From a virus, in the IMG/VR virus record IMGVR_UViG_3300022225_001767: a DNA stretch of 64,000 bases. One strand, given 5' to 3'. Shown here one piece after another: positions 40,119 through 57,254 of this stretch (within the stretch, counting starts at the first letter, position 1; every line of letters begins with the position of its first letter). Position numbers and translations under genes: made by a program. The notes below the pieces were generated by a model. That model was not told the DNA's origin and ran no database searches. It was given only the letters and a program-made list of their open reading frames with translations.

Positions 40119-40170
40119 CCTTGGTGATGTGCTGACACACTCACCCCAGCCCGCCATGCGCGGGCTTTTT
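40119..40170 (+). ncRNA. Hairpin plus terminator module carrying anti-leader sequence, copy 1
   Basis: GGTGA-TGTG-CTGA-CACA-C-TCACC, then GCCCGC..GCGGGC-T5; TGTGCTGACA is the reverse complement of TGTCAGCACA. Confidence 0.55.
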
Positions 40171-40273
40171 CTTATCTCTCATTACATCAAAATCTTGACA
40201 ACACTCGCAGTTTTTGAGATACTAACCTTGTCAACACACATCGCCCCAGCGATAACAAATAAGGTTAACATTT

Positions 40274-40501
40274 ATGCCCACTCATCCATGCAGCATCAGT
40301 GATGCCATCAACACCTGCGCAGGGGAGCTCCCAGAGGGATGGCGAGTGCGACTTGATATTGAACTACACGGCTCAGGCATGTCCATCATCGATCCGGATG
40401 GCAATGAACACGATTTTGACAGCGGAGGCGAAAGCCTTGCCGATGATTTTCTTTACGCCCTTGAATTGGCGAAACAAAAACACAACAAGGAAAAATCATG
40501 A
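40274..40501 (+). CDS. Small hypothetical protein
   Basis: After repeat 40195; TAAGG RBS. Confidence 0.75.
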   Translation: MPTHPCSISDAINTCAGELPEGWRVRLDIELHGSGMSIIDPDGNEHDFDSGGESLADDFLYALELAKQKHNKEKS

Positions 40502-40926
40502 TAGAGACCACTTCTCGATGCATTGCGTGCATCACCAGCGCCGCATTTCGCGCCACCGGCATCACTGAAGATGATGCCAATAACGGCAAACTTATGTTTT
40601 TTTCGCCAAGCGGTAGCAGCATTCTCATGCAGTATGAGAATCTGATTTACCAATTAGTCATTCTCAGCGATGAATCTGACCATGATTGGCTGAACCCGAG
40701 TATCCTGCGGGTAAGAAACTTCAATCTTGGCGGAGAGCCCTCTGATGAGGCCAAAAAGGAGATTACCGCAATCTGGCAGAAAGGGCTTGACGCTTGGATT
40801 AGAGAGGTAGCTGACAAAGACAATGACGCGTATCTTCCAACACCACTACGCAACCGTTTGTCGACACTAATGAAAGAAGAAATTGCCGCGCTAAAAAAGC
40901 AAAATCGTCACCACGCAAGCGCATAG
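40498..40926 (+). CDS. Hypothetical protein
   Basis: ATGA coupling. Confidence 0.75.
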   Translation: MIETTSRCIACITSAAFRATGITEDDANNGKLMFFSPSGSSILMQYENLIYQLVILSDESDHDWLNPSILRVRNFNLGGEPSDEAKKEITAIWQKGLDAWIREVADKDNDAYLPTPLRNRLSTLMKEEIAALKKQNRHHASA

Positions 40927-40995
40927 CATACCTTTCACTCATTCACATTGCGCCCATTGCTTGACGCGTGGGCACAACCGCACTGGAGCATCATT

Positions 40996-41289
40996 ATGCA
41001 ACTTTTTGGCATCCACACAACAGAATTTGAAAACAATGACTTTATGCTACTTAATTATGCAGCGTTATGCACGACACAACGTGACATTGTTTTTATTACC
41101 AGTAACGAAATAGACGCTCAAGAGCCTACTGGTGATATTGTAGGTGAATCTGTTGATGTTGAGTTCAATAATCAGTGTTTTTCGTTCGAGTGTGACCAAG
41201 GTTCGCTCACACAGCAAGGGCAAGCTGACTTTGACAATTTTCTCAACAGCACGCTATTTCCTGCTATCAAAAATGGAGCCCCCCTCTAA
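40996..41289 (+). CDS. Acidic hypothetical protein
   Basis: GGAG RBS. Confidence 0.7.
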   Translation: MQLFGIHTTEFENNDFMLLNYAALCTTQRDIVFITSNEIDAQEPTGDIVGESVDVEFNNQCFSFECDQGSLTQQGQADFDNFLNSTLFPAIKNGAPL

Positions 41290-41573
41290 TGGCTCGCTCA
41301 CAGGAAGCGCGCACCATCGACTTGTTGGCCCATAGAGCACTTGTTCGCAAAAATATGGGGCGTGATGGCAAGGCCATGATGTTGGAGGATGGCTCTCTGC
41401 GGCCGCACTCGATAGTCATGAACACCTCTAACATTCATGTTAAAGTGGCTATTGCCGATCCAAAGTCGCACACTGTACGCATCTCAGATATTGATTTGGT
41501 TACGGGGATGTCTAACTATCACCTTGAAAAGACCTTTTTCAACATGGCTCTGTTTGATGAGGTTGAAGCATAG
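41289..41573 (+). CDS. Hypothetical protein
   Basis: TAATG coupling. Confidence 0.7.
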   Translation: MARSQEARTIDLLAHRALVRKNMGRDGKAMMLEDGSLRPHSIVMNTSNIHVKVAIADPKSHTVRISDIDLVTGMSNYHLEKTFFNMALFDEVEA

Positions 41574-41797
41574 TGGGATTTTCTGTTGCCAAGGAGTATC
41601 ACTGGTGCGTGATTGCACTCATCTTCGGCGCATTCAGCCTGCTGTTACTGCTTATATGCGCAGTCATCGGCGTTGACAGGAGCGCGGTGGAGCCCAGTGC
41701 ATTCTATGCCATCATAGGCGCCGGAGCCATCAACTTGATGTGCCTTTGTTTCCTCTGGTTAAGGTATGTAGACAAACTCAAATACATTGACGACTGA
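41573..41797 (+). CDS. Small two-TM protein
   Basis: TAGTG coupling; hydrophobic. Confidence 0.65.
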   Translation: MGFSVAKEYHWCVIALIFGAFSLLLLLICAVIGVDRSAVEPSAFYAIIGAGAINLMCLCFLWLRYVDKLKYIDD

Positions 41798-41906
41798 TAC
41801 CGCATTGATGTGCTTTGTTGCCTTGTGAACAAAACAAGAAAAAGTGTTGACATAACTCACAGGCTTTGAGATACTAATCCTGTCAACATAACACGAGGAT
41901 ACACCA

Positions 41907-42170
41907 ATGCAAACCACTCAGTCTTACCTGCTTTTCCCGGTTAAGCCCAGCTACCCTATTGACGAGGACGGCACAGAAGGCACCTTGGAAGAACACTTGG
42001 CATATGTCGATAATGGCGGTACACCAGACATGTGGGACAGCGTAGAAACTGAGAACATCATGGATGTATTCAAACAAGTTCGCTACTCAGGCCTTCACCT
42101 TATCATCGTACGCAACGATGGTGATCCTGAAGTTGTCGGGGAATTTGACCCGTCAGAATATTCAGATTAA
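41907..42170 (+). CDS. Acidic hypothetical protein
   Basis: After repeat 41847. Confidence 0.8.
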   Translation: MQTTQSYLLFPVKPSYPIDEDGTEGTLEEHLAYVDNGGTPDMWDSVETENIMDVFKQVRYSGLHLIIVRNDGDPEVVGEFDPSEYSD

Positions 42171-42222
42171 CGTTATTAACCACGGCTGCAATAGCGGCCG
42201 TGGGAGCTACCAGTGAGGCAAC

Positions 42223-42447
42223 ATGAAACCGACTCTTATTGCACTGTGCATTTTGCTACTTTGCGCGATAACCGCGTCATCGGGCTGCACGCTTCAACGC
42301 CAGGTCGTGGCGAGCGCCTCTCTTGCCGATGAAGCAACAATGGATCACGTTACTGCGGCATTCCTTCGCGACACAGCCACGGTGACATTGACGACCCCTC
42401 AGGGGCGTGTCATACGCACATCACGTGCGAGGCAGTACTACTTTTAA
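42223..42447 (+). CDS. Small exported or lipoprotein-like protein
   Basis: GAGG RBS; hydrophobic N-terminus, SSGC. Confidence 0.65.
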   Translation: MKPTLIALCILLLCAITASSGCTLQRQVVASASLADEATMDHVTAAFLRDTATVTLTTPQGRVIRTSRARQYYF

Positions 42448-42448
42448 A

Positions 42449-42504
42449 CCTTGGTGATGTGCTGACACGCTCACCACCAGCCCGCCACTGGCGGGCTTTC
42501 TTTT
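42449..42504 (+). ncRNA. Hairpin plus terminator module, copy 2
   Basis: CCTTGGTGATGTGCTGACACGCTCACC..GCCCGCCACTGGCGGGC-TTTCTTTT. Confidence 0.55.
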
Positions 42505-42585
42505 GGCTGTTGAGTCGCGCCACCATTGACAACCTTCACAGATTCACGTTACAGTTTTATACAGACAATAACAAGGGATGCTCGC

Positions 42586-43137
42586 ATGAGTACAGCAACA
42601 CCTGAAACACCAACGCACTTTCAAATAGGCATGAACACATTCACCGCAGAAATCGTTGCTGCGGCAATCACTGTCCCCTTAAAAATGCTCAATTTTTCAC
42701 GATTCGATAATGCTCATGATGCGCTCGACGAAGTGAAAAAAATCACTACTGAGCGCCTCCCTGATCAAACCGCGTTAACCACATACTGTGGCAGTGAACT
42801 GGTGGCCAAACTCAATGAAGACACACCTGTCGCCATTTACGAGGTGTATCGTTCGCTCTCCCCTCTGGCACCCAAGGCTGACGCTTTGACGCTAAAAGCG
42901 ACGGAAGGGAAAGGTATCTTTTTGTGTTGCTTGCCGTCTTACGGGGCCAGAACACTGGTCAATTTATTTGTTGCCACTTACATTGACACGATCATCGATG
43001 AAGTGAAGCGCTTCGACACAGACGGGCATGTTAGTAACGTGCTTAAGAACGAGCCGCGTCGTTTTCCTTTGACACTTTCTGCCATCTTAATGGCAAGTCT
43101 TGGACGCACTGCCTACGATTTGTCACTCGCGGCTTAA
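42586..43137 (+). CDS. Hypothetical protein, paralog family with 49301 and 56623
   Basis: FSRFD..AL..T.ERL; YGARTLVNLFVATYIDT. Confidence 0.85.
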   Translation: MSTATPETPTHFQIGMNTFTAEIVAAAITVPLKMLNFSRFDNAHDALDEVKKITTERLPDQTALTTYCGSELVAKLNEDTPVAIYEVYRSLSPLAPKADALTLKATEGKGIFLCCLPSYGARTLVNLFVATYIDTIIDEVKRFDTDGHVSNVLKNEPRRFPLTLSAILMASLGRTAYDLSLAA

Positions 43138-43162
43138 AAGCATAGACAACAAGGATAATGTG

Positions 43163-44416
43163 ATGAGAATTAAATCGATAAATGAAGGAAAGGCGCTGCT
43201 TTTGCTTGAACGACACAAACACTGCGACCAGACCATGCACGCACTTTCCCGCGCATTATATGTTGGCATAAGAAACAGCCTCATCACACTGCTAGGCGCG
43301 CTGCTTCTATTGGTTGCGCTCTCAGATATAAAAGCGACAACATTAATGTTTCTCGCTTTCATAGGTGCCATAGCGCCTCTTTTCTACATCGCTGTGCACG
43401 CGTTCTTTGAGCGACGTGACGCTATCCGTCGAGGTGATCACAATGGCATCCTTAAACTTGCCCTGCGCCTGCCCGAACAAACCAGTAAAATTATCCCTTA
43501 TGGGCTGCCTTTTGGATTGAGCGTAATTTTTTACGAAGCGTACTCCACCCTCACTACGGGCACGTTCGCATCCTCCATGCTGCTAGGCACATGCCTTATT
43601 GTGACGGTCTATAGCGCGACGCTTTTCTTATTCAATAGCGCTAAACCTGCGCATGAGGCGAGAAATAAAAAGAGCGCGATGGATGTCGCACTCAGTGAAT
43701 TTGAAACATCAGATAGCGGCAAGCAGACCGCAGTGCTTAAGCGTTTTGGATTTTATCTTTCCAGCAGCCATAACAAATTTGGCAGCCTTCTCACCTCAAA
43801 AGAAGAGCAATCAGCTGTTATTGAGGCCGGTAAAGGTGTGATTAAAAGCCACAGTCAGGCCCGGGACGCTATTTACCTTCAAAACGGTTTAATGACTTGT
43901 CTTATCACAGTGGCCACGGTCATTTTTATGTACATTGCTCATCATGGATTAGTCACGCTAACTGACTCGCAAGCAGCTTCATACCCACTCTCACTAATGA
44001 TGGGGTTGTTCGGACTTTACGTCGGGCGTCACATTGGACTTAGCTTGTCTGTCAACCCAACGCTTGACTTCACTACGACCAATGAACAAGATGCTTATGA
44101 CCATACGGGACCACGAGCAAGTGACTTGATACGTTCACGGGCATTTTCGGTCACCTCTCCCCTTATTCCTGTTGTCATGATGGCACTTGCTCTAGCCCCT
44201 TCGACGCTATTTTCGTCGGCAACGGCCGAGGTTGCGTTCCAGCTTGCATTGATCACGTTCTTGCCATTGCTTTTAAATGCTGCGGTGACTCGAATGTCAC
44301 TGAGCATCATTGCCAGCACGGAACGTGATATTGATGCGCTAAGGCGTGATGTAGAGTATGCTAAGAAAAAATCCAACGTCTTGCAGTTCCATCGCAAGCA
44401 TAAAGCGAGCGCTTAA
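43163..44416 (+). CDS. Multi-pass membrane protein
   Basis: About 8 hydrophobic segments; AAGGA RBS. Confidence 0.8.
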   Translation: MRIKSINEGKALLLLERHKHCDQTMHALSRALYVGIRNSLITLLGALLLLVALSDIKATTLMFLAFIGAIAPLFYIAVHAFFERRDAIRRGDHNGILKLALRLPEQTSKIIPYGLPFGLSVIFYEAYSTLTTGTFASSMLLGTCLIVTVYSATLFLFNSAKPAHEARNKKSAMDVALSEFETSDSGKQTAVLKRFGFYLSSSHNKFGSLLTSKEEQSAVIEAGKGVIKSHSQARDAIYLQNGLMTCLITVATVIFMYIAHHGLVTLTDSQAASYPLSLMMGLFGLYVGRHIGLSLSVNPTLDFTTTNEQDAYDHTGPRASDLIRSRAFSVTSPLIPVVMMALALAPSTLFSSATAEVAFQLALITFLPLLLNAAVTRMSLSIIASTERDIDALRRDVEYAKKKSNVLQFHRKHKASA

Positions 44417-44472
44417 CATGGTAGGCAACCTGTGTTACAATGACAATGTCAACACAACACAGGTTATTCTCT

Positions 44473-44970
44473 ATGGATCCATGCTACATCGAACAAACCA
44501 AGATTGCTCACGGTCATGATCACAAAGGTCGTGACCTTACGATAGACAATTCGCAAACACCGGTTAAATGCGCGCGCTTCTTCTGTGTTTACCCGAAAGA
44601 GCAGAACGACCAAGGTAATATCGTCACTTACCAGTATTCAGAACAGACACCTCTTGGTATTCGCCATGTCACGCTGTCAGCAGACACGGTTAAGACGTGC
44701 TTTGTTAAGCATCGTCCTGTTGAGCACGGTGATACACTGAAGGCCAAGGTGGACACCAAAGGTTACATCAAGTGCGTCAACAGCGCCCCCCTAACCTTAG
44801 CGATAAAACAAGGTGAGGTTCTCACGTGCATCAACAGCAAGCTTAATACGTTCTGCAAGGTGGGTGAACCACATCGCATCTTCGGAATAAATCGCATGCT
44901 GATAGGAGACTATGCTCACACCATTGCCGATCCTGACGAGTTCCTTGTATTACCTTATATAGAGACGTAG
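44473..44970 (+). CDS. Hypothetical protein
   Basis: After variant repeat 44413. Confidence 0.75.
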   Translation: MDPCYIEQTKIAHGHDHKGRDLTIDNSQTPVKCARFFCVYPKEQNDQGNIVTYQYSEQTPLGIRHVTLSADTVKTCFVKHRPVEHGDTLKAKVDTKGYIKCVNSAPLTLAIKQGEVLTCINSKLNTFCKVGEPHRIFGINRMLIGDYAHTIADPDEFLVLPYIET

Positions 44971-45081
44971 GCCGCAGTTGCCACACCTCTTATCGGCTGC
45001 AAAAAAACACAAAAAACTGTTGACAACATACACAGGTTTTGGGATACTAATCCTGTCAGCACAACAACACAGGAAAACATC

Positions 45082-45480
45082 ATGAGCTTCATGCGTGAAC
45101 AAGCACTTAAAGCCCGTCGCCAAGTACTAAACCTCCACCTTAAAAAGTTGGATGCAGCCTTTCGCTCGCTTAAAAAAGACAAAGGTTTCGCGGCAGCACG
45201 TCTTACCAAAGATCACCACGACTCTGGCCAGGTGCGCTCTGAACTTGCTGAGGAAAAACTGGGCAAAGGGGCGCTAGATAGCGGTAACCTTTATGCGTTT
45301 TGTGGCATCATTAAGCGTGGGTGGACGACGCTACCAAATCAAACGTCTATCTTTTGGAATAGCACGGTTCCTAGCTCTCGCAAGATCATCGTCGACACGA
45401 TGCAAGACGCAGGGCTTGTTGTCACGAACCCTGACGCTCCTCACGAAGCGGTTGTGGTAAAGTTAAGTGATGCGGCATAG
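45082..45480 (+). CDS. Hypothetical protein
   Basis: After repeat 45020. Confidence 0.8.
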   Translation: MSFMREQALKARRQVLNLHLKKLDAAFRSLKKDKGFAAARLTKDHHDSGQVRSELAEEKLGKGALDSGNLYAFCGIIKRGWTTLPNQTSIFWNSTVPSSRKIIVDTMQDAGLVVTNPDAPHEAVVVKLSDAA

Positions 45481-45531
45481 CCGCATTCACTGCTCTTCAT
45501 TTTACTAACGCAACACTATAGGCAAAAAACA

Positions 45532-45834
45532 ATGAGTACTCCTACAGAAGCCATCGAAAATGCAACATTTGATTGCGCTGAACCCGTCATGAATGCGCTA
45601 CCTGATAGCGTTAATCACGCTAACCCCAATGGGGCACGCGCGAAGCAGGGATGGCGCGCCCTTCATGGCTACGCAAAACACATTTACGGAAGCAGTGGAG
45701 GCGAACCTGTCGAGCAGGGAGTACGCGACTTGCTATCTGATCTCCAGCACACATGCGAACATCTTAACATCGATTTCATGGAAGCGCTGGAGCGTGCTAG
45801 TTCCGTCTTCAATAGTGAGAAAGAACATCCATAA
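45532..45834 (+). CDS. Hypothetical protein (DLLSDLQH helical motif)
   Basis: ORF in the gene run. Confidence 0.75.
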   Translation: MSTPTEAIENATFDCAEPVMNALPDSVNHANPNGARAKQGWRALHGYAKHIYGSSGGEPVEQGVRDLLSDLQHTCEHLNIDFMEALERASSVFNSEKEHP

Positions 45835-45910
45835 ATGTCTCTTTTTTATTGACAACACTCTCAGCTTTTGAGATACTAACCCTGTCAACACAACGGTCTC
45901 GGAGAGCACT

Positions 45911-46429
45911 ATGAAAACATTGTTTGTCCCACTTGAGTTAATTACGCCAAATAGCGCGCAAATTGCTGGGCAAAGCATCAAAGCAACCGTATGCCAGAGC
46001 AAAATGTTTTCTTCCGATAGCATGCTTTCGCCTAACGTTAACTTAAAAGGCTACGATGCTCTCTCGCTACTTGGCGCTATCCTTGGTGATACTGGGGGCA
46101 ATACATCACCTGACGCTATCCCTGATGGTCGTGCTATTTTCGATGTAACGTTCTCGGCCTTTTACATCAACGACCTTAACGAACCCGAATACATTGATAT
46201 ATGTGTACAACGACAATGCCTCCCAAAGGACGCGCAGATCACTGAACGTGATACCACCATCATTGACGCGGTATTTTATGCCAAAATGGATGTGGTTGGC
46301 GATGTCAATTGCCCACTTGACGAGGATATTGTCAACGAGGCTCTCGCAGAATATAAGGAAGAACACCTGTCTGCGGCTCTTGGCGCGGTCGGCTGGCGTG
46401 TTAGCATTACACCCAAAGCCCTCAAGTAA
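45911..46429 (+). CDS. Hypothetical protein
   Basis: After repeat 45849. Confidence 0.8.
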   Translation: MKTLFVPLELITPNSAQIAGQSIKATVCQSKMFSSDSMLSPNVNLKGYDALSLLGAILGDTGGNTSPDAIPDGRAIFDVTFSAFYINDLNEPEYIDICVQRQCLPKDAQITERDTTIIDAVFYAKMDVVGDVNCPLDEDIVNEALAEYKEEHLSAALGAVGWRVSITPKALK

Positions 46430-46492
46430 CACGGTTTATATTTTTAGGTGAAGCCGTTTCGCTTCACCTCAACTCAACACCAAGGCGTCATT

Positions 46493-47140
46493 ATGAACTC
46501 TACAACCCTTTTAGCTTCACTTCGCATTGATGAAGAGCAAACGTTACTGACCCCTCAGCAACAGCTTGCACTCATTAAACGCACCACTGCACTGGCACAA
46601 AAAACGCCATCTCGTCTTACGCCAGATACTAATAAGGCATGGCAATTAGGCCGCTACTGGCTACCCCTTATCTCAAAACAAGCGACTCACGGCCATAAGC
46701 CTTCTCTCTCGGCACTACTTGAGATCGATAACATCATTGGGAGTCCAGACAGTGACACATGGTCTGATACTCTTCTAGGTTGGCTTTCTGACGCAGGGCT
46801 TGACGGTATCAGCAAGGCGGAGGTGGCTGCAATTGACGATATGAACGACACCGCAGAAAATGAAAAAATTGAGCAAGCTATCGCCACGGCCTCACCGTTA
46901 GCGCGCTATATCTGGGCAGACATTAATCCCAATGCAATAATGACCTATGCATATCAAGCATGTTCAAAGACGATGCTCCAGCGCTTATGGGTGCTCGACA
47001 GTACGGTCATTGATATCATGGTCGACAATGATGATTTCAGTTTAGCCAGCCTAACCGCTGCTGAACGTGCCTTAATGATGGCACTTTCCGATAGTCAACA
47101 CGACATTATTAAAGCGCTGGCCAGCCAGGCATCTAATTAG
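46493..47140 (+). CDS. Hypothetical protein, paralog of the 27461 C-terminal domain
   Basis: KPSL.A...I.N.I; SPL.RY.W.D.NP. Confidence 0.85.
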   Translation: MNSTTLLASLRIDEEQTLLTPQQQLALIKRTTALAQKTPSRLTPDTNKAWQLGRYWLPLISKQATHGHKPSLSALLEIDNIIGSPDSDTWSDTLLGWLSDAGLDGISKAEVAAIDDMNDTAENEKIEQAIATASPLARYIWADINPNAIMTYAYQACSKTMLQRLWVLDSTVIDIMVDNDDFSLASLTAAERALMMALSDSQHDIIKALASQASN

Positions 47141-47251
47141 ATTTTTATTACCCATAAAACCAAGGTTGTTTGCAACCTTGGTTGTTTTTTTATTGACAAT
47201 TAACACAGATTTTGAGATACTAACCCTGTCAGCACAACAGAGGTTACTCGC

Positions 47252-47590
47252 ATGAATACCACCTACGCTAAACGCGTTCTTACGCCCAAGTCAGACATTG
47301 TCGCCATCTACATTGGTTTTATCGGTGATACGCTTTATCTTTTTGAGTGCAACACCAAAAATCAAACGGTGCGTCAGTTTAAACTTAGCCTAAAAGACCG
47401 CACCATCCCTGATGAGCATCTTGCTAAAGCCATTGCCGATAAAGGATTGGCATTCAATCAAGTCAAGGTTTACTCTCACCCTGATTACATTGAGTATTTC
47501 AAGCGCGGGGCAGCAGGTACAAAGTCGATTAAACAAGACTTTTGGGTACGCACTACCGCAAGAAACCCCAACATGAAACGTGTCGCATAA
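47252..47590 (+). CDS. Hypothetical protein
   Basis: After repeat 47193. Confidence 0.8.
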   Translation: MNTTYAKRVLTPKSDIVAIYIGFIGDTLYLFECNTKNQTVRQFKLSLKDRTIPDEHLAKAIADKGLAFNQVKVYSHPDYIEYFKRGAAGTKSIKQDFWVRTTARNPNMKRVA

Positions 47591-47673
47591 CGGCACGTTC
47601 TTCATCTTTTTTGTTGACAATCAACACAGATTTTGAGATACTGATCCTGTCAGCACAACACAGGTAAAAAACG

Positions 47674-48288
47674 ATGAACACACCTCTTTCAGATACCGCA
47701 AAACAATACGCATTCATGGCACTAATGTTTCGCCAGCGTTTACTTCCTCGCTGGAATCGCATGTACCTTATCGAAAACGAAAATGTACTAGAGCATACTG
47801 CCGAAGTCACGATCACAGCACTGCTTTTAGGGTTAATCTCTAAGCATGAGTTTGGCAAAACCATCGACATAGGCAAGCTTCTATCTTACGCTATCCTGCA
47901 TGACGGTGAAGAAACGCTAACCACGGATTTGCCTTCCCCTATCAAACGCTCTTCACCTGAGTTCTACGATATGTGGAAAGCCCTTGAAGTTGAAAACGAA
48001 AAACTGCTTTTCAGCAAACTTCCTGATTACATGCGCAGCGAAATCGAAGCCATTTGCCATGACAAGTCTTATGAGACTGAATTGGTAAAAGCCGCAGATA
48101 TTTATGTCGCGCATAACAAAGCATCACGCGAGTTTGCGATGGGTAACGTACTAGAGTTCAAAGTTGCCGTTAAAAAATGCGAAGCGGCTTACCTTGAATA
48201 CGCAGAAAAATACCCTGAGTTAGCGCGCCTACATGAATACTTTGGCGGCTGCATGCACATGAGCCTTGATGAACTTATCGAGGCATAA
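47674..48288 (+). CDS. HD-domain 5'-deoxynucleotidase (YfbR-like)
   Basis: LPRW...ENVLEH...ILHD.EE..TDLPSPIK...VKAAD. Confidence 0.85.
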   Translation: MNTPLSDTAKQYAFMALMFRQRLLPRWNRMYLIENENVLEHTAEVTITALLLGLISKHEFGKTIDIGKLLSYAILHDGEETLTTDLPSPIKRSSPEFYDMWKALEVENEKLLFSKLPDYMRSEIEAICHDKSYETELVKAADIYVAHNKASREFAMGNVLEFKVAVKKCEAAYLEYAEKYPELARLHEYFGGCMHMSLDELIEA

Positions 48289-48365
48289 AAAACGGGGGCA
48301 ACGCCCGCCCCCACATTCACAAAAAATCACTCACAACAAGTCTCACTAAAAGTGAAAATAGACTT

Positions 48366-48890
48366 ATGAAAACACGCATCACACGCACACTAATGAGCGC
48401 AGCCTTAGCCATGAGCGCTTTATCTGTTAGTCATACCGCACTGGCAGAAGGCGAAACGATAAAAGGCATCGTGCCTATTGAACAAGCCAAAAACGCTAAT
48501 GTGAAAACATGCCTTAAAGCCGTTACAGATATTTCTAACTTTCTTATCGGTGATGGTGAGCATGGCGCGCATGGCACTTGGGCAACAGATTCACAAGATT
48601 CACATTATACTGCCGTCATTGAGCGCGCGTATAGTGACGGCTCAATGACCATGAATATTGTTGCCGCCCCCACCGCAGACGGCAAATGTGTCGCCCAGTA
48701 TACCAAACATATCATTTTTGAAGAAAACTGCATGAGTGCGCTAAAAACCTTTGATGGCATCGAAATAAAAGGCTCACTGGCGCAAAATGTGACATACATC
48801 AAGCACAATTTAGTTGATATGTATATGAATCCTATTGGCAAAAAAAATGAGTATTGCCATGTGGTCAGAAAAGAAGTGATGACATTCTAA
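48366..48890 (+). CDS. Exported Cys-containing protein
   Basis: Signal peptide ending ALA; 4 Cys. Confidence 0.8.
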   Translation: MKTRITRTLMSAALAMSALSVSHTALAEGETIKGIVPIEQAKNANVKTCLKAVTDISNFLIGDGEHGAHGTWATDSQDSHYTAVIERAYSDGSMTMNIVAAPTADGKCVAQYTKHIIFEENCMSALKTFDGIEIKGSLAQNVTYIKHNLVDMYMNPIGKKNEYCHVVRKEVMTF

Positions 48891-48955
48891 GTATTGAACT
48901 CACATTGCCGAAAGCGCCTTGTGGCGCTTTTGCATCACGTTTACAGGAATCTAAC

Positions 48956-49180
48956 ATGCCTTCAAACGCAAAAAATCTGTTAAGTGAGTGGAGTGCTCAC
49001 AAAGCAAGCCAACTTATACCTTGGCGGTATAACCTTCGTTCAGAAACCCTTTATGCCAACCTAGACAACAAAAAGGTTAAAATGAACAGAAAGATCCGCA
49101 GTATATTCCCCAGAGGGAAGCGGTTTGATCGCATCGCTAAAGATTGTGTTGCTGTACCTAAAGATCTTCAGGACGAGTGA
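48956..49180 (+). CDS. Small basic protein
   Basis: AGGA RBS. Confidence 0.65.
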   Translation: MPSNAKNLLSEWSAHKASQLIPWRYNLRSETLYANLDNKKVKMNRKIRSIFPRGKRFDRIAKDCVAVPKDLQDE

Positions 49181-49300
49181 TGAAAATAACATAGCGCAGT
49201 AGTTAGCCACATAAAAAGGCGCTTTCTCTACTTTCCTGTTGACAACACTCTCAGGTTTTGAGATGCTAACCCCTGTCAGCACAACAACAGGAACACCACG

Positions 49301-49855
49301 ATGAAAATCACATCCGCTTTTTTACCAAGCTACGCATTCTCAGTCGACATTTCACAGACGGTACTTTCCTGTATTGCCGATACCATAACCGCACCATTCG
49401 ATAACGAAGACTTTTCATCGTTTGCTTCGCTTGATGATGCGCTTAACCACATTGTCACACAAACACAGCAACGCCTTGCCACAGAGCAAGATAAGGTGCT
49501 AAGTCAGGCAGAGTCAACATTTGACTCGCTTGTCGATACAACAATCAATCACTTCTATGACGGCTTTTCGCCGATTGCGCTTTACGCCGACCGCATTACC
49601 CTAAACCACAGCTACAATGTACCTATGCACCACTTGATGCTCTGTAGTGCATGTACGATGGTAAATACATTTGTTGCGCTTTACGTTGATGTGCTTATCA
49701 AAGAGGCCGTTCGCTTTGACGCCGCCGCTTGCACATTGAAAGGCAGCGTTAAGGGGGATTCTACCTTATTCCTCAAAAACCTTAACGACATACTTCAGCA
49801 ATCGATGGGTTACGTCGAATATGACATAAGCCGCCTTTCTCAACTAGGCCTGTAA
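49301..49855 (+). CDS. Hypothetical protein, paralog family with 42586 and 56623
   Basis: After repeat 49239; TMVNTFVALYVD. Confidence 0.85.
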   Translation: MKITSAFLPSYAFSVDISQTVLSCIADTITAPFDNEDFSSFASLDDALNHIVTQTQQRLATEQDKVLSQAESTFDSLVDTTINHFYDGFSPIALYADRITLNHSYNVPMHHLMLCSACTMVNTFVALYVDVLIKEAVRFDAAACTLKGSVKGDSTLFLKNLNDILQQSMGYVEYDISRLSQLGL

Positions 49856-49960
49856 TGCACAACACGCGCCCTTTCCGCGAGGGCGCGCCGCCAAAAAAAT
49901 TGACAACGCACTCAGTTTTTGAGATACTGTTCTTGTCAGCACAACAACAAGGGTTACATC

Positions 49961-50638
49961 ATGGGTTGGGAATTTTGCAGCTACACAACGGACATTGATA
50001 AGGTCAACGAACCTCAGCTTTTTGCGGGCAATGAAGTTGGGTTGCCTACGCGACTTAATAATACACTTTATATTGACGAGAACGATGCAGCCAACGCGCT
50101 TTGCGATGAACTCGACAAGCTAGGCTGCATGTACGCAACATATATTGACTTCGAGTCGAGCAGCACTCCCCTCAAGAACGCACGCGTAACCCGCGCCCAT
50201 GAGACATTTAAAAAACGCTCTGAGCGCCAGTGCGAAGTGACATTGGCAGCAATACAAAAGGCAGAAAACCTTAAAACGCGAACATGCCCTAAGTGCAACA
50301 AGCGCGTTTCTATGCAGCGCTATCACCGTAACTTTAGCTACTTTAGGTCGAGTGTTAGTCACTCGCCTTACCATTCGTCATTCGGGGGTAGCTGCCCTCA
50401 TTGTGGCGACGACACACTGCCGCTAACGCAAGCCCAACGCCAATCTATCGAGAAGGCAAGAGTAAGAGCCGCAGACGCTTATGACGTATGGCAGAACGAG
50501 AAAGAAAAGGCCGTTCGCGCCATGCATAAGGCGGGCAAGCTTGGTACTAAAGCCGTGGTGGTGGGTATGCTGCATGAGATTGATGCGCGCCCCTACAACG
50601 ATGAACACTTTGATGAAGATGAGTACGATGATTATTGA
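49961..50638 (+). CDS. Zn-ribbon protein with acidic tail
   Basis: After repeat 49900; CPKC...CPHC. Confidence 0.8.
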   Translation: MGWEFCSYTTDIDKVNEPQLFAGNEVGLPTRLNNTLYIDENDAANALCDELDKLGCMYATYIDFESSSTPLKNARVTRAHETFKKRSERQCEVTLAAIQKAENLKTRTCPKCNKRVSMQRYHRNFSYFRSSVSHSPYHSSFGGSCPHCGDDTLPLTQAQRQSIEKARVRAADAYDVWQNEKEKAVRAMHKAGKLGTKAVVVGMLHEIDARPYNDEHFDEDEYDDY

Positions 50639-50740
50639 TCATCGTACGTTTTTCTTACAGACAACCTAAACAACCTATTGACAAATAACACAGATTTTGC
50701 GATACTTACCCTGTCAGCACAACAACACAGGCAACGCATT

Positions 50741-51442
50741 ATGACCACCTATCATCAACTTGCATTCCATGCGGCTTTTCGCCCAGCAAAATACCACTCG
50801 AACCACGCTGATTTGTTGCGTGAGCGTGCCAGCGATTTTGTTAATCCTGCTGCACGCATTGCATTAACTTACCCTGCATTAACACGCGTGCTTGATCACG
50901 CGGCTAACGCCTTTTCTTCGACCTCTGTTGTTGATGTATTTAGTGATGCGAAACGTTCAGCACAACGCATTGACGGCCTCTTTCTCATGTTGGTGTGTGC
51001 GGAGCGTCTTAATTTAGAAAACCTCAATACGCAACCCCGATCACCTGTCAGTGAAGCGGACATCAAGCGGGCCGAGGCGTTACTTGATGACTTAGGTAAA
51101 CTTAGAAAAGCCATCGATATTGCCAACAAAGGTATTACAGCAGACCACCTCACCTACGTAACAGGTACGCCTTGCCCTGCACAAGCGACACCTGATGACG
51201 TAAAGCTTATGTGGGTGGTATTTATGTTTCACGATATGTGTGTGAATTATAGCAACGGCATGTCCACGATTGGGCTACTCGACCCCAATGCGCCACCAGA
51301 ATGTAAAGCCCTGCGAGAACGTACCGCCAAGGTGATGGAAGACGCTTTTTTTCATCTTGCTACCCACTACATCGCATTTTCAGAGGTTGCAGCGATACGC
51401 GGTTCGCAGTCTACTCACACGGCACCACCATTGGTACAGTAA
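50741..51442 (+). CDS. Hypothetical protein
   Basis: After repeat 50678. Confidence 0.8.
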   Translation: MTTYHQLAFHAAFRPAKYHSNHADLLRERASDFVNPAARIALTYPALTRVLDHAANAFSSTSVVDVFSDAKRSAQRIDGLFLMLVCAERLNLENLNTQPRSPVSEADIKRAEALLDDLGKLRKAIDIANKGITADHLTYVTGTPCPAQATPDDVKLMWVVFMFHDMCVNYSNGMSTIGLLDPNAPPECKALRERTAKVMEDAFFHLATHYIAFSEVAAIRGSQSTHTAPPLVQ

Positions 51443-51559
51443 TCGCCAAGCGGCAGTCGTAAACATGATTATTGTGAGCGACTGTTGCCAAAACCATTGA
51501 CAACTATCACAGATTTTGCGATACTGATCCTGTCAGCACAACACATCAGGGTAACCATC

Positions 51560-52183
51560 ATGGCACTATTTCAAGCGCTTGCGCAACTTGTTAACGGTAA
51601 AACGTCACCACAAGAAAACATTGACTCCAATCAACCTGTTGATACAGGTGTGACTATCATTTCGGGCATAGATCCTCGCGCCACCAGCGAAGCGAAGCTT
51701 ATTGCACCTGCGCCACTACCGCACATTAGCCGTCGCTCACTGAAGCGTGTAAAGCACCGCGTTCCCGTGCCTGAAACATGCCCTTACTGCGGTCATGAGC
51801 ATGTCGAGTTAGTGGAGCATAAAACCGTTTATAAGCGTAGCTATGGAGAGTGGCCTTACCTTTACCTATGCCGAAATCAAGAATGCGGTGCCTACGTAGG
51901 TGTTCATCCTCACACTGATATACCGCTTGGCACGCTGGCTGATGCGGCCACTCGCGAGGCACGCAAAGCCAATAAAAGCTGGTTTATGCGCCTTATGAAG
52001 CGTCAGCAGTGCGGTCTTAATATTGGCTATCTATGGTTGTCTCAAGAAATGAACATTCGCGCTGAGCAATGCCACTGGTCAATGTTTGACGTTGAATTGT
52101 GCGAGCAGGCAGGCGCTATCTGCAAGGCAAAATTTGAAGATGGTACGATCCTCATGCCGAAGCACTTCTCTCGCTCAAAATAA
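51560..52183 (+). CDS. DUF3268-like zinc-finger protein
   Basis: CPYCG...YLC...CGAYVGVH..TDIPLGTLAD..R.AR. Confidence 0.8.
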   Translation: MALFQALAQLVNGKTSPQENIDSNQPVDTGVTIISGIDPRATSEAKLIAPAPLPHISRRSLKRVKHRVPVPETCPYCGHEHVELVEHKTVYKRSYGEWPYLYLCRNQECGAYVGVHPHTDIPLGTLADAATREARKANKSWFMRLMKRQQCGLNIGYLWLSQEMNIRAEQCHWSMFDVELCEQAGAICKAKFEDGTILMPKHFSRSK

Positions 52184-52190
52184 CCTCTTT

Positions 52191-52244
52191 TTGGTGCTGT
52201 GCTGACATACACACCCTGCCCGCCACGCGCGGGCTTTTCTCTTT
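52191..52244 (+). ncRNA. Hairpin plus terminator module, copy 3
   Basis: TTGGTGCTGTGCTGACATACACACC..GCCCGCCACGCGCGGGC-TTTT. Confidence 0.55.
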
Positions 52245-52331
52245 CTTAACATTGGTTATTTTCAATTTTAACATTGACTTAACCCTGATTATAAGAGACA
52301 ATAAACAGGTCAACACAACAAGGTATACTCC

Positions 52332-53108
52332 ATGGGAAAAACCACTAAGCCCCCTCTCTCAAATGTCACGCCTAAACCGACAGGCACCACCACGATATTC
52401 GACGAGTTATGCCATCTGCCGAAAGCCCAACAACAATGGGAAAACCGCACTTACATCAGTTTTGATGATGGCGACATCAGAGACAGCCTTGATATCCTGA
52501 CGCTTGAGAATGAGCACCTCTGCGGCCAGAGCGAGCCAGAATTTACTACAAGAGCAGGTGGACGCTATCAAGACACCTCGCTTACTGATTTTGTGGGCAT
52601 TGGCCTTAATCGTGACGATAGCGCCTTGTCGTTTGAAATAACCAATGCCGCAGACAGCGTTTTTGCGCCTGTCGAGTTAGCCGAGACATTTGTATGGTAC
52701 GTTGTGATTGATACGCGCACCAGCACCACAACCGTACACTATGCAGACTCGCATTTATCGATGGCATTTTCGCAAGCCACATGGGCGCAATGGCAGCAAT
52801 GGCTGATAACGTACCAACCGTTGCTGCATGTGCATGAGTACCGACAATTTATCTCTCCTTATTCACCTAACTACGAGGAAAAAGCGATGTTATTTTTAGT
52901 TGTTTATCACCCTGAAGGGGAAGAACCGCGTTCTGCGCTGGCTGAAGCGCCTAATGAAGATGTGGCATGGGATGCCGTTGCTGAGCGTCACCACCTTAAT
53001 GCTGGCACCTCGCCTGAAGACGAGGAGCTTTATCTCGACCACACCAAAGTGCTAGACAGCATGCTTAAAGAGGCGCAAGTACCTTATACATTAACATCGA
53101 CGCGTTAA
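52332..53108 (+). CDS. Hypothetical protein
   Basis: After repeat 52274. Confidence 0.75.
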   Translation: MGKTTKPPLSNVTPKPTGTTTIFDELCHLPKAQQQWENRTYISFDDGDIRDSLDILTLENEHLCGQSEPEFTTRAGGRYQDTSLTDFVGIGLNRDDSALSFEITNAADSVFAPVELAETFVWYVVIDTRTSTTTVHYADSHLSMAFSQATWAQWQQWLITYQPLLHVHEYRQFISPYSPNYEEKAMLFLVVYHPEGEEPRSALAEAPNEDVAWDAVAERHHLNAGTSPEDEELYLDHTKVLDSMLKEAQVPYTLTSTR

Positions 53109-53195
53109 TATCTGCATGAATTTTCTTGGCTGTGTTGACAACGCACTCAGACTTTGGGATACTAACACTGTCAACACAACCAAGGAGAAAGCCTC

Positions 53196-53351
53196 ATGGC
53201 ACAATCTAACGAAAATAAAGTTTGGATGGCGTATAACCACAACGACACGCCATTAATGAAATCACCCGCATCGCTTGAGGATGCCAGGGCTGAAGCTGAC
53301 GCGTACACCTACGCGACAGGCAATGCTTCTTATGTAGACAAGGCTAAATAA
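53196..53351 (+). CDS. Small protein (51 aa), absent from the ORF track
   Basis: After repeat 53135; AAGGAG RBS; MAQSNENKVWMAYNHND... Confidence 0.75.
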   Translation: MAQSNENKVWMAYNHNDTPLMKSPASLEDARAEADAYTYATGNASYVDKAK

Positions 53352-53551
53352 GAAAAGGCTCATAAGAGCCGTTTCTTCACGCATTACAAAATCGCAAAAG
53401 CGAATATAGATATGTGGTGATACGTTGCAAAGAAGACGATTGCCAACTCGCCTTTTTTTGCATATAAAACAAACACCAATCACTTTTTGTATTGACAACA
53501 CTCTCAGCTTTTGAGATACTAACCCTGTCAGCACAACTTAGGAGCATCACC

Positions 53552-53893
53552 ATGCCTGCAATCGATACGCAACAGCAACGCGACAACGCCATCAAAGGTA
53601 AAACTCTGGCCTTTATCGGTGACGCCAATTGGGACCTCTATGCGCAACCTGATGGACGTCTTTGGGCCATTCCAAAACCAGACTGCCTTGGCTGTCATAT
53701 GAGTCCTTTTGGAGACAGACATCACGTCAAGAGACTGATGGACAAGGGTTACTTCACTTCCACGCCGACGGATGCAGGACTTGCACTAATGGAGGGGCTT
53801 TACACAAGGCTGATTACCGATTCGAAAGGGAAGCGTTTTGGGATTTTAGGCTTCGACATACCCGACGGCCTTAGGACAGCTTTCGCAGCCTAA
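53552..53893 (+). CDS. Hypothetical protein
   Basis: After repeat 53492. Confidence 0.8.
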   Translation: MPAIDTQQQRDNAIKGKTLAFIGDANWDLYAQPDGRLWAIPKPDCLGCHMSPFGDRHHVKRLMDKGYFTSTPTDAGLALMEGLYTRLITDSKGKRFGILGFDIPDGLRTAFAA

Positions 53894-54002
53894 ATATGAG
53901 GTGCGCGGCTGGTTAATTATGGGTCAGCCGCATTTTCTATTGACAACACTCTCAGAGTTTGAGATACTTATCTTGTCAGCACAACATTAAAGGTATATCA
54001 CA

Positions 54003-54368
54003 ATGGAACAGGTTCTTTTTCTTGCATACGCTATCACAGGCATGGACTACGAGTACGAGAACGAAGCGTTGCTTCTCCCTACGCCAGATCTCGATGCAGC
54101 GAAAGCGGCATGCTGGGATTTTCTTTTTGCCAATGATATCATGGGCAACGACGATGAGTACGCGTTGGCGCGTGTAGACAAAGTTGTAGTGGGTCAACGT
54201 GACAGCACCGAAGTGGTGTGGCATTCGCGTGAGGAGCAAAAGCAAGTGGACCTTGAGATTGCAGCCGCAGAACAAGCGCTTGCACACAAAGAGCGCAACC
54301 TCGACAATGAGGCGTGGCTGTATTGGGACATGGAGCAGGCGCTTATGGGCCAGCGGGTGATGCATTAA
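54003..54368 (+). CDS. Acidic hypothetical protein
   Basis: After repeat 53940. Confidence 0.8.
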   Translation: MEQVLFLAYAITGMDYEYENEALLLPTPDLDAAKAACWDFLFANDIMGNDDEYALARVDKVVVGQRDSTEVVWHSREEQKQVDLEIAAAEQALAHKERNLDNEAWLYWDMEQALMGQRVMH

Positions 54369-54413
54369 TCGCCCCCTAATGTAATACTTTTTCAACCAGA
54401 GGGCGCACATCAC

Positions 54414-54908
54414 ATGGATATAACCAACGAAGATCCACAAACAGACATCACCCTGAATACTATTGGGCAAGCCTTATTATGGATGTGGCGTGGCGTCGGT
54501 TTTTTCGCGCTTCTTGCGGTCATTTCGTTGATGGCACATTCTTATGCCACATTGCCCGACTTTGAGCCTCACACTTTTAAGCTAACGACGTCGTTTTTAA
54601 TTATGGCTATGTGTATCGGCTTGATAATCGCCAAGCTTGCTCATACCGTTGCATTCAGGTATCAAAATGTCACCCGAAACCAGCCTCACAGTACGTCGCA
54701 TGATGCGCAGGTGGCATTCGACCTGGTCAGCACAGCATTGATTGCACTGTTTACTAATTATGGTGCCATTATCGCGATAGACATGCTGACATCTGCCGAA
54801 AACACCATGTGGGATAGTGTTTTTATAACCGCTGCGTTGGGATTTAACACACTGTTTGTCATCCTCACCTCCGATTTACGGAAGGTAATAAAGCCAGATG
54901 TCGATTAA
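54414..54908 (+). CDS. Four-TM membrane protein
   Basis: GAGGG RBS; hydrophobic helices. Confidence 0.75.
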   Translation: MDITNEDPQTDITLNTIGQALLWMWRGVGFFALLAVISLMAHSYATLPDFEPHTFKLTTSFLIMAMCIGLIIAKLAHTVAFRYQNVTRNQPHSTSHDAQVAFDLVSTALIALFTNYGAIIAIDMLTSAENTMWDSVFITAALGFNTLFVILTSDLRKVIKPDVD

Positions 54909-54989
54909 ACATAATGCAAAAAAACATTGACAACGCTCTCAGCTTTTGGGATACTGTTCCTGTCAGCACAACAACACAGGAACAGTACC

Positions 54990-55502
54990 ATGGCACTATT
55001 TGCTATCAAAGCCTTACCCCTTAACCTTTCTCCGATGAATCTACGCCCTGAATTGGGTGAAATCGAAATCGACACCGACACACTTGAGAAAGCCAGAGAT
55101 GTTGCTCAGTCGCGCGTCCCATCAGATAAACCCTTCATGATTTGCCCGTGGCGCGAAACCACCAAGTGCTTCACAGTGGGCGACCGCGAATTCGTCTTCC
55201 CGTCAACGCTTTACCGCTACAACGGCAAAGATTTCGATGTTCATCAAGGCAAATGCCTAAGTGATTCACCTGCGTCAGGCCAATTCTTGAATAAGAGTGA
55301 TGCAAAGCGTGATTATGATAAGCATGCGAAACTTGCTCAGGATAAGTTTGACAAAGCGCTTGCGCACCTGAAGGCCATGGAGGCGCTAGGTGTTAGCATT
55401 GATTACCACATGGCTGGCGATACGCATGGCATCTATGAAGATTACATGTATCTTGAAGTACAAGAAGGCCCTTATACCTTCGAATACCGTTACGGCAGCT
55501 AA
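54990..55502 (+). CDS. Hypothetical protein
   Basis: After repeat 54927. Confidence 0.8.
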   Translation: MALFAIKALPLNLSPMNLRPELGEIEIDTDTLEKARDVAQSRVPSDKPFMICPWRETTKCFTVGDREFVFPSTLYRYNGKDFDVHQGKCLSDSPASGQFLNKSDAKRDYDKHAKLAQDKFDKALAHLKAMEALGVSIDYHMAGDTHGIYEDYMYLEVQEGPYTFEYRYGS

Positions 55503-55512
55503 CACCAACATT

Positions 55513-55538
55513 AAAGCCCGCATTTTACGGGCTTTTTT
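55513..55538 (+). terminator. Intrinsic terminator
   Basis: AAAGCCCG-CATTTTA-CGGGC-T6. Confidence 0.75.
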
Positions 55539-55609
55539 ACGCAAAACCCATTGACAAAAAACACAGATTTTGAGATACTGTTCCTGTCAGCACAACACGG
55601 GTTACCACC

Positions 55610-55918
55610 ATGAACACACTATCGAATAAAACAATGTTTGATCACGATGCCGCAGACAAGACGTTCCCCATCTCAAAGCGTCGAAAATCACTGCTTCGTT
55701 ATATTCGTGAGCATGGTTGGGTAAAAGCCACCTGCATGGCAACAAAACTGGCCACTGGCTACCCTAAGCGCGCCAGAAAAGCAAACAAAACTTACGGCCA
55801 CGCGCTAAAGTCACTGTGGCTTCGTGGAGAGCTTGAGGGGATCAAAATAAACGGTGTTTGGCATTACACACAAGCCGCCCCGTATCACGACCGCTCGCCT
55901 ATTTCACGCGGTAAATAA
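55610..55918 (+). CDS. Basic protein, possible winged helix
   Basis: After repeat 55551; LLRYIREHG...LKSLWLRGELEGIKINGVWHY. Confidence 0.7.
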   Translation: MNTLSNKTMFDHDAADKTFPISKRRKSLLRYIREHGWVKATCMATKLATGYPKRARKANKTYGHALKSLWLRGELEGIKINGVWHYTQAAPYHDRSPISRGK

Positions 55919-55953
55919 ACCACAACAACACTTTTCGTCACTAGGGAAACAGC

Positions 55954-56547
55954 ATGAAAAACATCAAAATCGGTCTTTCTTCTATCTACAATTCACATCA
56001 TTTTGAAGCGGAGCTTATCAACGGTGATAGTGAATTTTCTTTCCCGCGAGAGTCAGGGGCTGACAATGCATGCCGCCGCGCCGCACAAAACCTTCGTGAT
56101 ATGGCAGAAAAATTCGACATGCTCGCACTGGCGGTGAACCCAAATAACGCAACGACCATTAACAGCGTCAATAAACCTATGAGTAAGCGCGCACAAGATT
56201 TCGTGCGAGATAACCCCGCAGGTTCTGATTTTGTCTTTCGTGCAGATCGCACAGGCTCGCACTATGAAGACGGTACGGTTTATTACAATTATCAAGGTTT
56301 AGTTGATTATACATTCGACAATATCTTTGATGCGGCTCGCTACTTGATAGACGGCGCGACAGATGTGCCACACTACAGAGCAGATGCTGTGGGCAACCGC
56401 CTTGATGATGGATCTATTTCATTCTGGTCAGCAAGCTATGATGATGATGAACTTGACCTTGATGATGATGGTGGCACCGTCTACACCAAGCCCGAGCGCG
56501 TTGATGAAAATGGCGAGGTCGTGGACGAGGACGACAGTGTGTCGTAA
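55954..56547 (+). CDS. Hypothetical protein with acidic C-terminus
   Basis: AGGGA RBS. Confidence 0.8.
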   Translation: MKNIKIGLSSIYNSHHFEAELINGDSEFSFPRESGADNACRRAAQNLRDMAEKFDMLALAVNPNNATTINSVNKPMSKRAQDFVRDNPAGSDFVFRADRTGSHYEDGTVYYNYQGLVDYTFDNIFDAARYLIDGATDVPHYRADAVGNRLDDGSISFWSASYDDDELDLDDDGGTVYTKPERVDENGEVVDEDDSVS

Positions 56548-56622
56548 TTACGGCACACTATTGACAACCCTCTCATATCTGTGAGAGGATTATTTTCGTC
56601 AACACAACAACGAGAATGCATT

Positions 56623-57186
56623 ATGAACAGCACTACAACACAGCACAACAGCCAGCCTAATGTTTTTGAAATTGGTTATTGCAGCAATGTATCTGAAGCT
56701 ATTTCAGTTGCCATCTGCGTACCTTTAAGTACATATGATTTCTCAACGTTTGATACGGTGTCTCAAGCGCTTGAACAGATCGCTATAATGACGAAAAAGC
56801 GACTTGATAACGCCCCAGCATTAGTTGAAAGCTACGGCAATGAACTTACCTCTCGCATCAACAGTATGAAAATGAACGTTACTGATGAGGTGTACGACGC
56901 ACTTTCGCCCCTTGCTCGCAGTGCAGACAACCTGACCATTGAGGTTGTCAATAACCGTGAAGGCCACGTGCCGCTTAATAAGTTAAGCATCTATGGCGCA
57001 CGTACGCTCATTAACCTTTTTGTTTACACCTACATCGATACGTTGATGGAGATGGTCAAGAAGTATGATGTTGAAAGCGCGCTTGATGATATGCTACAAA
57101 ACGACCCCGCTAAATTCTGGATGACACTTGATGATTTGCTGACGAGTTGCGCAGGCTACCCTGATTTTGACATGACGCGTATCTAA
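56623..57186 (+). CDS. Hypothetical protein, paralog family with 42586 and 49301
   Basis: After repeat 56561; YGARTLINLFVYTYIDT. Confidence 0.85.
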   Translation: MNSTTTQHNSQPNVFEIGYCSNVSEAISVAICVPLSTYDFSTFDTVSQALEQIAIMTKKRLDNAPALVESYGNELTSRINSMKMNVTDEVYDALSPLARSADNLTIEVVNNREGHVPLNKLSIYGARTLINLFVYTYIDTLMEMVKKYDVESALDDMLQNDPAKFWMTLDDLLTSCAGYPDFDMTRI

Positions 57187-57201
57187 CACGCTTTAGTTTC
57201 A

Positions 57202-57254
57202 CCTTGGTGATGTGCTGACACACTCACCCAAGCCCGCCATGCGCGGGCTTTTTT
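57202..57254 (+). ncRNA. Hairpin plus terminator module, copy 4
   Basis: CCTTGGTGATGTGCTGACACACTCACC..GCCCGCCATGCGCGGGC-T6. Confidence 0.55.

Follow-up and report, generated by a model that had tools for sequence, protein, structure and literature searches.

Terminator-linked hairpins complementary to a shared 5′ leader tag: a possible multi-copy antisense RNA in a large marine mobile element

RNA-OUT of IS10 is a cis-encoded antisense RNA with ~ 35 nt of perfect complementarity to its target RNA-IN, and 3′ETS-leuZ is a 3′ external transcribed spacer RNA released from a tRNA precursor. Other small RNAs (sRNAs) derive from the 3′ untranslated regions (3′UTRs) of mRNAs and share the terminator of the parent transcript, as exemplified by NarS (PMC7038943) and by OppZ and CarZ of Vibrio cholerae, which act on their own transcript (PMC7398697). 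In the hok mRNA of plasmid R1, the 3′ end pairs with the mRNA's own 5′ end through the tac/fbi fold-back and keeps it translationally closed (PMC9841398). Here we describe a module of a hairpin fused to a terminator, present in four copies in a 64,000-nt stretch of DNA (IMG/VR virus record IMGVR_UViG_3300022225_001767; hereafter the window, whose positions are used throughout) that is part of a very large uncultured marine mobile element, with contigs of up to 447 kb. The hairpin carries the exact complement of a short tag at the predicted 5′ end of many of the element's mRNAs, and our favoured though tentative reading is that the modules are a multi-copy, 3′-end-derived antisense RNA specific for one of two classes of leader.

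The window holds ~ 56 copies of one promoter, TTGACA-N17-(TGn)GATACT-N6-GTCA(A/G)CACAAC, each followed by a ribosome-binding site and start codon. By standard sigma70 spacing the transcripts would start at the G of GTCA and so carry one of two 5′ tags, which we call A-type (GTCAAC, in RNA GUCAAC) and G-type (GTCAGC, in RNA GUCAGC, the mRNAs starting GUCAGCACAAC). A-type tags occupy 0-45 kb, and from 45 kb onward G-type tags predominate. Between the window and its relatives (fetched sequences, cited below by L number and position) the tags are 100% identical (209/209; 264/264 positions of the 11-nt tags in 33000-64000 against L084, L092 and L074), whereas identity across strains is only 93-96% for the promoters upstream and 91-99% for the part of the leader that follows the tag.

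A degenerate 17-mer for the first hairpin (GGTGMTGTGCTGACAYR) matches the window four times, always on the + strand, at 40123, 42453, 52193 and 57206, compared to 0.09 matches in shuffled sequence, and a repeat finder returned the same four copies as family D14. This hairpin, hairpin 1, is 23 nt long (GGUGA-UGUG-[CUGA]-CACA-C-UCACC) with nine pairs and one bulged C, and a linker of 2-4 nt joins it to a GCCCGCC-N4-GCGGGC stem-loop and U run. Each copy folds as two independent hairpins, with a minimum free energy (MFE) of -19 to -27 kcal/mol and z of -2.9 to -5.0. The second hairpin has the form of an intrinsic terminator, a GC-rich stem-loop followed by a U run at a gene end, and was scored as one in three copies by a terminator scan of 36-56 kb. 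All four modules trail gene ends (stop codons at 40046-40048, 42445-42447, 52181-52183 and 57184-57186), with a new promoter 25-80 nt downstream of each. Pattern match, repeat family, folding and stop codons therefore agree with the preliminary description of this DNA, which had recognised four hairpin-plus-terminator units at the ends of transcription units.

Copy 1 (40108-40170, + strand; 79.9 bits with the covariance model described below) begins with a U-rich tract and ACCUU flank at 40108-40122, followed by hairpin 1 (40123-40145; complementary segment, or seed, UGUGCUGAC at 40128-40136 with the CUGA loop at 40132-40135), the linker (40146-40148), the terminator stem-loop (40149-40165) and the U run (40166-40170). 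Copy 2 (42438-42504, +) comes directly after its stop codon, with hairpin 1 at 42453-42475, linker at 42476-42479, terminator at 42480-42496 and U-rich tail at 42497-42504; its 3′ arm has the variant CACG, forming a U-G pair, and the ortholog in L074 has CACA, a single change that restores the Watson-Crick pair. Copy 3 (52184-52244, +), of a variant subfamily (GGUGCUGUGCUGACAUACACACC), has hairpin 1 at 52193-52215, starting 9 nt past the stop codon, linker at 52216-52217, terminator at 52218-52234 and U-rich tail at 52235-52244. In copy 4 (57190-57254, +) hairpin 1 lies at 57206-57228, the linker at 57229-57231, the terminator at 57232-57248 and the U run at 57249-57254, and its terminator (57232-57254) is identical in sequence to that of copy 1. 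RNA runs were seen as assembled contigs only, which break at the repeats. In a seawater RNA run one such contig stops at 40100, in the U-rich tract 22 nt before hairpin 1, and passes straight into Illumina adapter; fragments therefore ended there, a weak hint of a cut before hairpin 1.

Hairpin and tag match in sequence. The seed UGUGCUGAC complements nt 1-9 of G-type mRNAs exactly, and, as had been pointed out before, the hairpin sequence is the reverse complement of the start-box variant TGTCAGCACA. Within the window TGTGCTGACA occurs on the + strand only in the four modules, and the - strand (reading TGTCAGCACA on the + strand) has 14 occurrences, of which 13 fall in promoter start boxes. 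By our own estimate, assuming uniform base composition, the chance of a 9-mer match to either tag within a segment of 23-31 nt is ~ 5e-4. In the modelled duplex the partners of leader nt 1-9 would be the upper 5′ arm, the loop and, from the 3′ arm, its first base (UGUG-CUGA-C). The predicted gain on dimer formation is -11 to -13 kcal/mol for the 14 G-type leaders versus -3 to -8 kcal/mol for the 35 A-type leaders, and only 1/100 shuffled arms reached the observed gain. Opening of the seed is predicted to cost 5.4-5.8 kcal/mol (2.7 in copy 3) against a duplex of -16.5 kcal/mol. Because the C of the module faces the G of the leader, the modules would be specific for G-type leaders and spare GUCAAC, a preference that the preliminary description had anticipated and the predicted energies bear out.

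Conservation was assessed on ~ 21 distinct versions of the module, collected from the window and its relatives with a covariance model built from 13 copies, at no fewer than ten loci per element. Over these versions the CUGA loop shows no change at all, compared to 9 variants of the terminator loop and 8 of the linker; free variation of the loop in homologs, which would have counted against a specific role, is thus not seen, and loop and seed are constrained while terminator loop and linker drift. Since linkers and terminator loops differ among copies, the constancy of hairpin 1 does not reflect recent copying. When metagenome contigs were scanned with GGTG, CACC and the terminator as the only fixed parts and any sequence allowed in the inner 15 nt, all true matches proved to have one and the same inner sequence. 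Substitutions in hairpin 1 are few, with A>G and C>U in the 3′ arm yielding G-U pairs, and 98% of hairpin-1 cells are paired, which agrees with the earlier view that the structure acts at the RNA level. As had also been noted, the stem variants CACG and CATA keep their pairing through G-U. The second subfamily, represented by copy 3, bears A13>C, C24>U and U27>A, and A13>C with U27>A breaks one pair, giving an MFE loop of CUGACA. The variant is itself conserved, its hairpin being 23/23 identical in the diverged relative L073 despite differing flanks. The 10-nt block UGUGCUGACA is common to both subfamilies, whose differences fall in the 3′ arm or, within the 5′ arm, at the single position opposite a leader mismatch. 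One compensatory double change is seen in the terminator stem (GCCCGCC/GCGGGC to GCCCACC/GUGGGC, L079:2661); since hairpin 1 has no compensatory pairs and its loop is invariant, selection on it is not purely structural. The loop had further been likened to the YUNR motif: the letters CUGA do fit, but a loop of 4 nt is small for U-turn display.

The modules extend beyond the window. The contig L088 continues it; five more lie in the first 14 kb beyond the window, and ~ 19 kb further on there is a tenth, all among G-type leaders. The ten loci thus span from 40.1 kb of the window to ~ 33 kb past its end, where 31 of 44 leaders are G-type, and window positions 1-40 kb, with 31 A-type and 2 G-type leaders, have no module. 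One copy starts 16 nt past the 3′ end of a tRNA-Ala(UGC) gene with a G-type promoter (L088:13654-13724, ~ 13.7 kb beyond the window), so that this copy forms the trailer and terminator of a tRNA and the hairpin is not tied to a translation stop. The leader of the module's own unit is G-type at 6 of the 10 loci (1/4 in the window, 5/6 past its end). Within the window the nearest upstream leaders are, as previously noted, A-type for copies 1, 2 and 4 (39632, 41882 and 56598) and G-type for copy 3 (51532-51542, +), whose mRNA would therefore have complementary 5′ and 3′ ends.

When compared to described systems, the modules resemble the 3′UTR-derived sRNAs in having a conserved pairing region just before a Rho-independent terminator, and the upstream U-rich stretch could serve as an RNase E site; copy 3 and four of the downstream modules could act on their own transcript in the manner of OppZ and CarZ. 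They differ in being present in at least ten near-identical copies per element as opposed to one per operon, in having a seed half buried in a hairpin, and in their target, which would be the extreme 5′ end of dozens of mRNAs, whereas known 3′UTR sRNAs are single-locus and target ribosome-binding sites. As with RNA-IN and RNA-OUT, the free 5′ end of the target could nucleate on the antisense loop and pair down its 5′ side, displacing the stem, but the modules would act in trans, over 9-10 nt and from one to many. They are not cis-encoded antisense RNAs, lying kilobases from their putative targets on the same strand with a perfect match of only 9-10 nt. Units that start with a G-type leader and end in a module could fold 5′ to 3′ much like hok; unlike hok, the modules are not a toxin system, and the units that end in a module start with a G-type leader in 6/10 cases, no more often than the regional background. 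The parallel with 3′ETS-leuZ applies to the tRNA-Ala copy only. A closer relative may lie in the same element, at 19846-19992, where an intergenic RNA candidate without open reading frames (ORFs) has GC-stemmed hairpins and a terminator, and holds in an open loop the 13 nt CUGUUGUGUUGAC, which complement the A-type leader exactly. Both would be antisense to a shared 5′ tag, but the candidate offers 13 nt in an open loop that reaches G-type leaders as well, with equal predicted duplex energy via a G-U pair, while the modules offer 9-10 nt in a tight, terminator-fused hairpin specific for the G-type. Multi-copy state, fusion to many terminators and aim at a shared 5′-terminal tag would together set the modules apart from the 3′UTR sRNAs, RNA-OUT and hok.

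Under the antisense reading, a tail of ~ 55-70 nt would accumulate as a stable RNA shielded by the terminator hairpin, after release by cleavage in the upstream U-rich tract or, for the copy trailing tRNA-Ala, by tRNA 3′ processing, being set loose as the tRNA matures. Pairing would then nucleate between the CUGA loop and the free 5′ end of a G-type mRNA, which would go on to invade the weak upper stem (UGUG/CACA). With help from the pyrimidine-rich ACCU flank beside the ribosome-binding site, the resulting 9-bp duplex would make G-type mRNAs less stable or less well translated. Because at least ten terminators carry the module, the dose of repressor would scale with total transcription of the block, a form of global negative feedback. 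In units with their own G-type leader the same pairing could act in cis as a 5′-3′ fold-back.

Several observations weigh against this reading and keep our confidence in it short of even. Only four nucleotides of the seed are exposed, with the remainder inside a stable 9-bp stem, and the A-type candidate at 19846-19992, by contrast, offers its complement in large open loops. In MFE dimers the pairing reaches the ribosome-binding site via the ACCU flank, but this extension is unspecific, found with 8/14 G-type and 19/35 A-type leaders, and since masking is as frequent in the one class as in the other we do not rely on it. Seed mutations occur in three copies (L092:13644, L091:5454, L089:8849), and no leader was found with a compensatory change to match them. 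At the copy-4 locus L084 and L092 are without the 24 nt TCACCTTGGTGATGTGCTGACACA, hairpin 1 being deleted, and keep the terminator alone. Counted as events, seed, outer arm and 3′ arm all change at similar low rates; the comparison of sequences thus points to constraint on the whole hairpin and not demonstrably on the seed alone. Two of the window copies sit in A-type territory, and a G-type own-unit leader at 6 of 10 loci is no more than the regional background of ~ 70%. It also should be considered that loop and 3′ arm (CTGACA-CACTCACC) resemble the -35 box and spacer (TTGACAACACTCACC) of the promoter at 6144, and that in all window promoters (e.g., 6144-6190 and 53131-53181) the start box, TGTCAAC, reads on its opposite strand as the -35 box, GTTGACA; with both module and start box related in sequence to the -35 box, descent may explain part of the complementarity.

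Constraint on both arms as well as the loop is what would be expected if hairpin 1 were an RNA site for a protein of the element or host, acting in stability, processing or antitermination in the manner of boxB/nut, with the leader complementarity incidental or inherited. The invariant loop, the fixed position 2-4 nt before the terminator and just past the gene end, and the general suitability of a tetraloop hairpin for protein recognition over RNA kissing are all in keeping with such a site. Nevertheless, the variant subfamily alters the geometry of the stem, with a lost pair and shifted bulge, and is conserved all the same, the part it has in common with the main subfamily being the seed block. 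A protein site does not account for ten nucleotides matching the second commonest tag exactly or for the co-location with G-type leaders, and no RNA-binding or N-like protein was found, the 62 leader-linked ORFs giving two Pfam matches, neither of them RNA-binding. We consider a protein site rather unlikely. Its antitermination form, a nut/boxB site, we rejected: every downstream gene has its own promoter, so that read-through control is not needed, and the 62 ORFs gave no N-like or RNA-binding Pfam match, boxA not having been searched for.

A simpler possibility is that the module is a plain tandem-hairpin terminator cassette, spread along with gene cassettes, in which hairpin 1 stabilises or insulates and nothing reads its sequence specifically. 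The hairpin is after all dispensable at one locus and decayed at three, GCCCGCC-type terminators elsewhere work without it, and the regional association with G-type leaders could stem from local duplication. Recent copies, however, should match in linker and terminator loop, and nearly every copy differs there while hairpin 1 is constant. A structural role also predicts compensatory changes, of which hairpin 1 has none, and it sits poorly with a loop that never changes next to a terminator loop with 9 variants. We therefore regard a mere terminator cassette as quite unlikely.

Very unlikely, in our view, is that a regulator at G-type start sites recognises TGTCAGCACA in double-stranded DNA, the modules being inverted operators that serve as roadblocks or looping partners: the same 10 bp in both contexts, the 100% conserved start box and its identity with the inverse of the -35 hexamer would fit, but the distances from module box to next start box (99, 101, 108, 110, 112, 114 and 114 bp) vary and so are not helically phased, the tolerated stem changes are G-U pairs relevant in RNA and not in DNA, the inverted repeat on either side, GGTGA/TCACC, would be left without a function, and no DNA-binding protein candidate was identified. 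Only such a double-stranded DNA reader could see both elements, which bears on the suggestion in the preliminary description that one factor might also read the leader; since the hairpin shows the tag's complement and not the tag itself, a shared RNA factor finds no support. Its further suggestion, that leaders modulate termination, is unlikely because no alternative pairing links hairpin 1 to the terminator, so that opening the former would leave the latter untouched. For the same reason hairpin 1 was rejected as an anti-antiterminator. Overall, the earlier interpretation, of hairpins acting in trans on leaders or bound by a common factor, is partly supported.

Other identities were considered for the module and set aside. 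It is not an integron attC site, having no R′/R″ boxes, nor a decayed promoter, there being no -10 element at the right distance, and a mini-ORF (AUG-UGC-UGA) inside hairpin 1 is not conserved in the variant subfamily. REP elements and IS200-IS605 end hairpins were likewise excluded, as the covariance model found no module at TnpB elements and every copy runs in the direction of transcription. IS605-family TnpA/TnpB insertions are strain-variable at several cassette junctions (L084:5932-7331 and 11131-12648; L091:5884-7401), and module presence and gene order (167-aa and 280-aa genes) differ among strains.

The G-type leader tags of the window, beyond that of the unit ending in copy 3, all lie on the + strand. 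The tag GTCAGCACAAC at 45055-45065, where transcription from a sigma70 extended -10 promoter is predicted to start (+ 1), is a predicted target; further G-type tags lie at 47228-47238, 47649-47659, 49275-49285, 49935-49945, 50713-50723, 53527-53537, 53975-53985, 54962-54972, 55586-55596 and 58349-58359; two more are isolated within the A-type block, at 3755-3765 and 31343-31353. The two leader classes also differ in their use of putative ribosome-binding motifs, counted over 45055-58359 and relatives, the cases hence not being independent: GGAG serves as ribosome-binding site in 1/49 distinct G-type leaders versus 17/48 A-type, and CAGG is present in 24/49 versus 11/48. A CCUGU...ACAGG leader hairpin was found in 9/49, compared to 6.4 expected, which is not significant. 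A terminator at 47158-47183 is a perfect palindrome, AACCAAGGTTG-TTTG-CAACCTTGGTT, and contains CCTTGGTTGT; this is complementary to ACAACCAAGG of the leader at 53170, which may be chance.

The element itself is abundant in seawater across the world, at least half of the sampled sequence words being present in 17 of the runs listed, from 13 studies. Nothing like it was found in the phage, plasmid, viral-contig or species-genome collections searched. Neither the region nor its proteins had a BLAST match in phage and plasmid collections, apart from a remote one to PcfJ in Vibrio plasmids. Scans of viral contigs with a hairpin 16-mer and with the promoter-plus-tag pattern gave single chance matches lacking terminators or tags, as did species genomes. 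Rfam likewise had no match in the window, the best sub-threshold score being 22.9 bits for Trp_leader against a threshold of 41. The two leader-linked ORFs with a Pfam family encode a YfbR-like 5′-deoxynucleotidase (47674-48285) and a DUF3268 protein (51560-52180); homologs of the latter led to an unrelated prophage (L083) and a different element (L080). In this second uncultured element (L080:1-10387) each small gene is preceded by the element's own repeated promoter (AACTTTTTTGTTGTAA ... TAnnnT) and a CA-repeat leader (ACACACACAAACACAG), and there is no module. Further ORFs of the window include TnpB genes (16705-17931 on the - strand and 62771-64000), a PcfJ-like protein (23341-25512, - strand) and a GmrSD_C/HNH protein (34125-34976).

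Taking the antisense modules together with the A-type candidate, it is conceivable, though we hold it doubtful, that the element has a two-channel tag and anti-tag RNA control. More than 100 mRNAs would carry one of two 5′ tags, the A channel being read by stand-alone loop RNAs (which would reach G-type leaders too via G-U pairing) and the G channel by antisense hairpins in at least ten terminators and a tRNA trailer, with each finished transcript of the block feeding a common pool of repressor. If such a system is real, it would provide element-wide, copy-number-proportional negative feedback, or would turn off an accessory or anti-defence block of genes at a set time. Should the pairing alone prove real, dozens of unrelated genes would be regulated post-transcriptionally through a shared 5′-terminal tag, by a repressor that is a by-product of termination at many sites and not the product of a dedicated gene. 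The genes under this putative control are almost all of unknown function, and a regulatory handle would aid their study.

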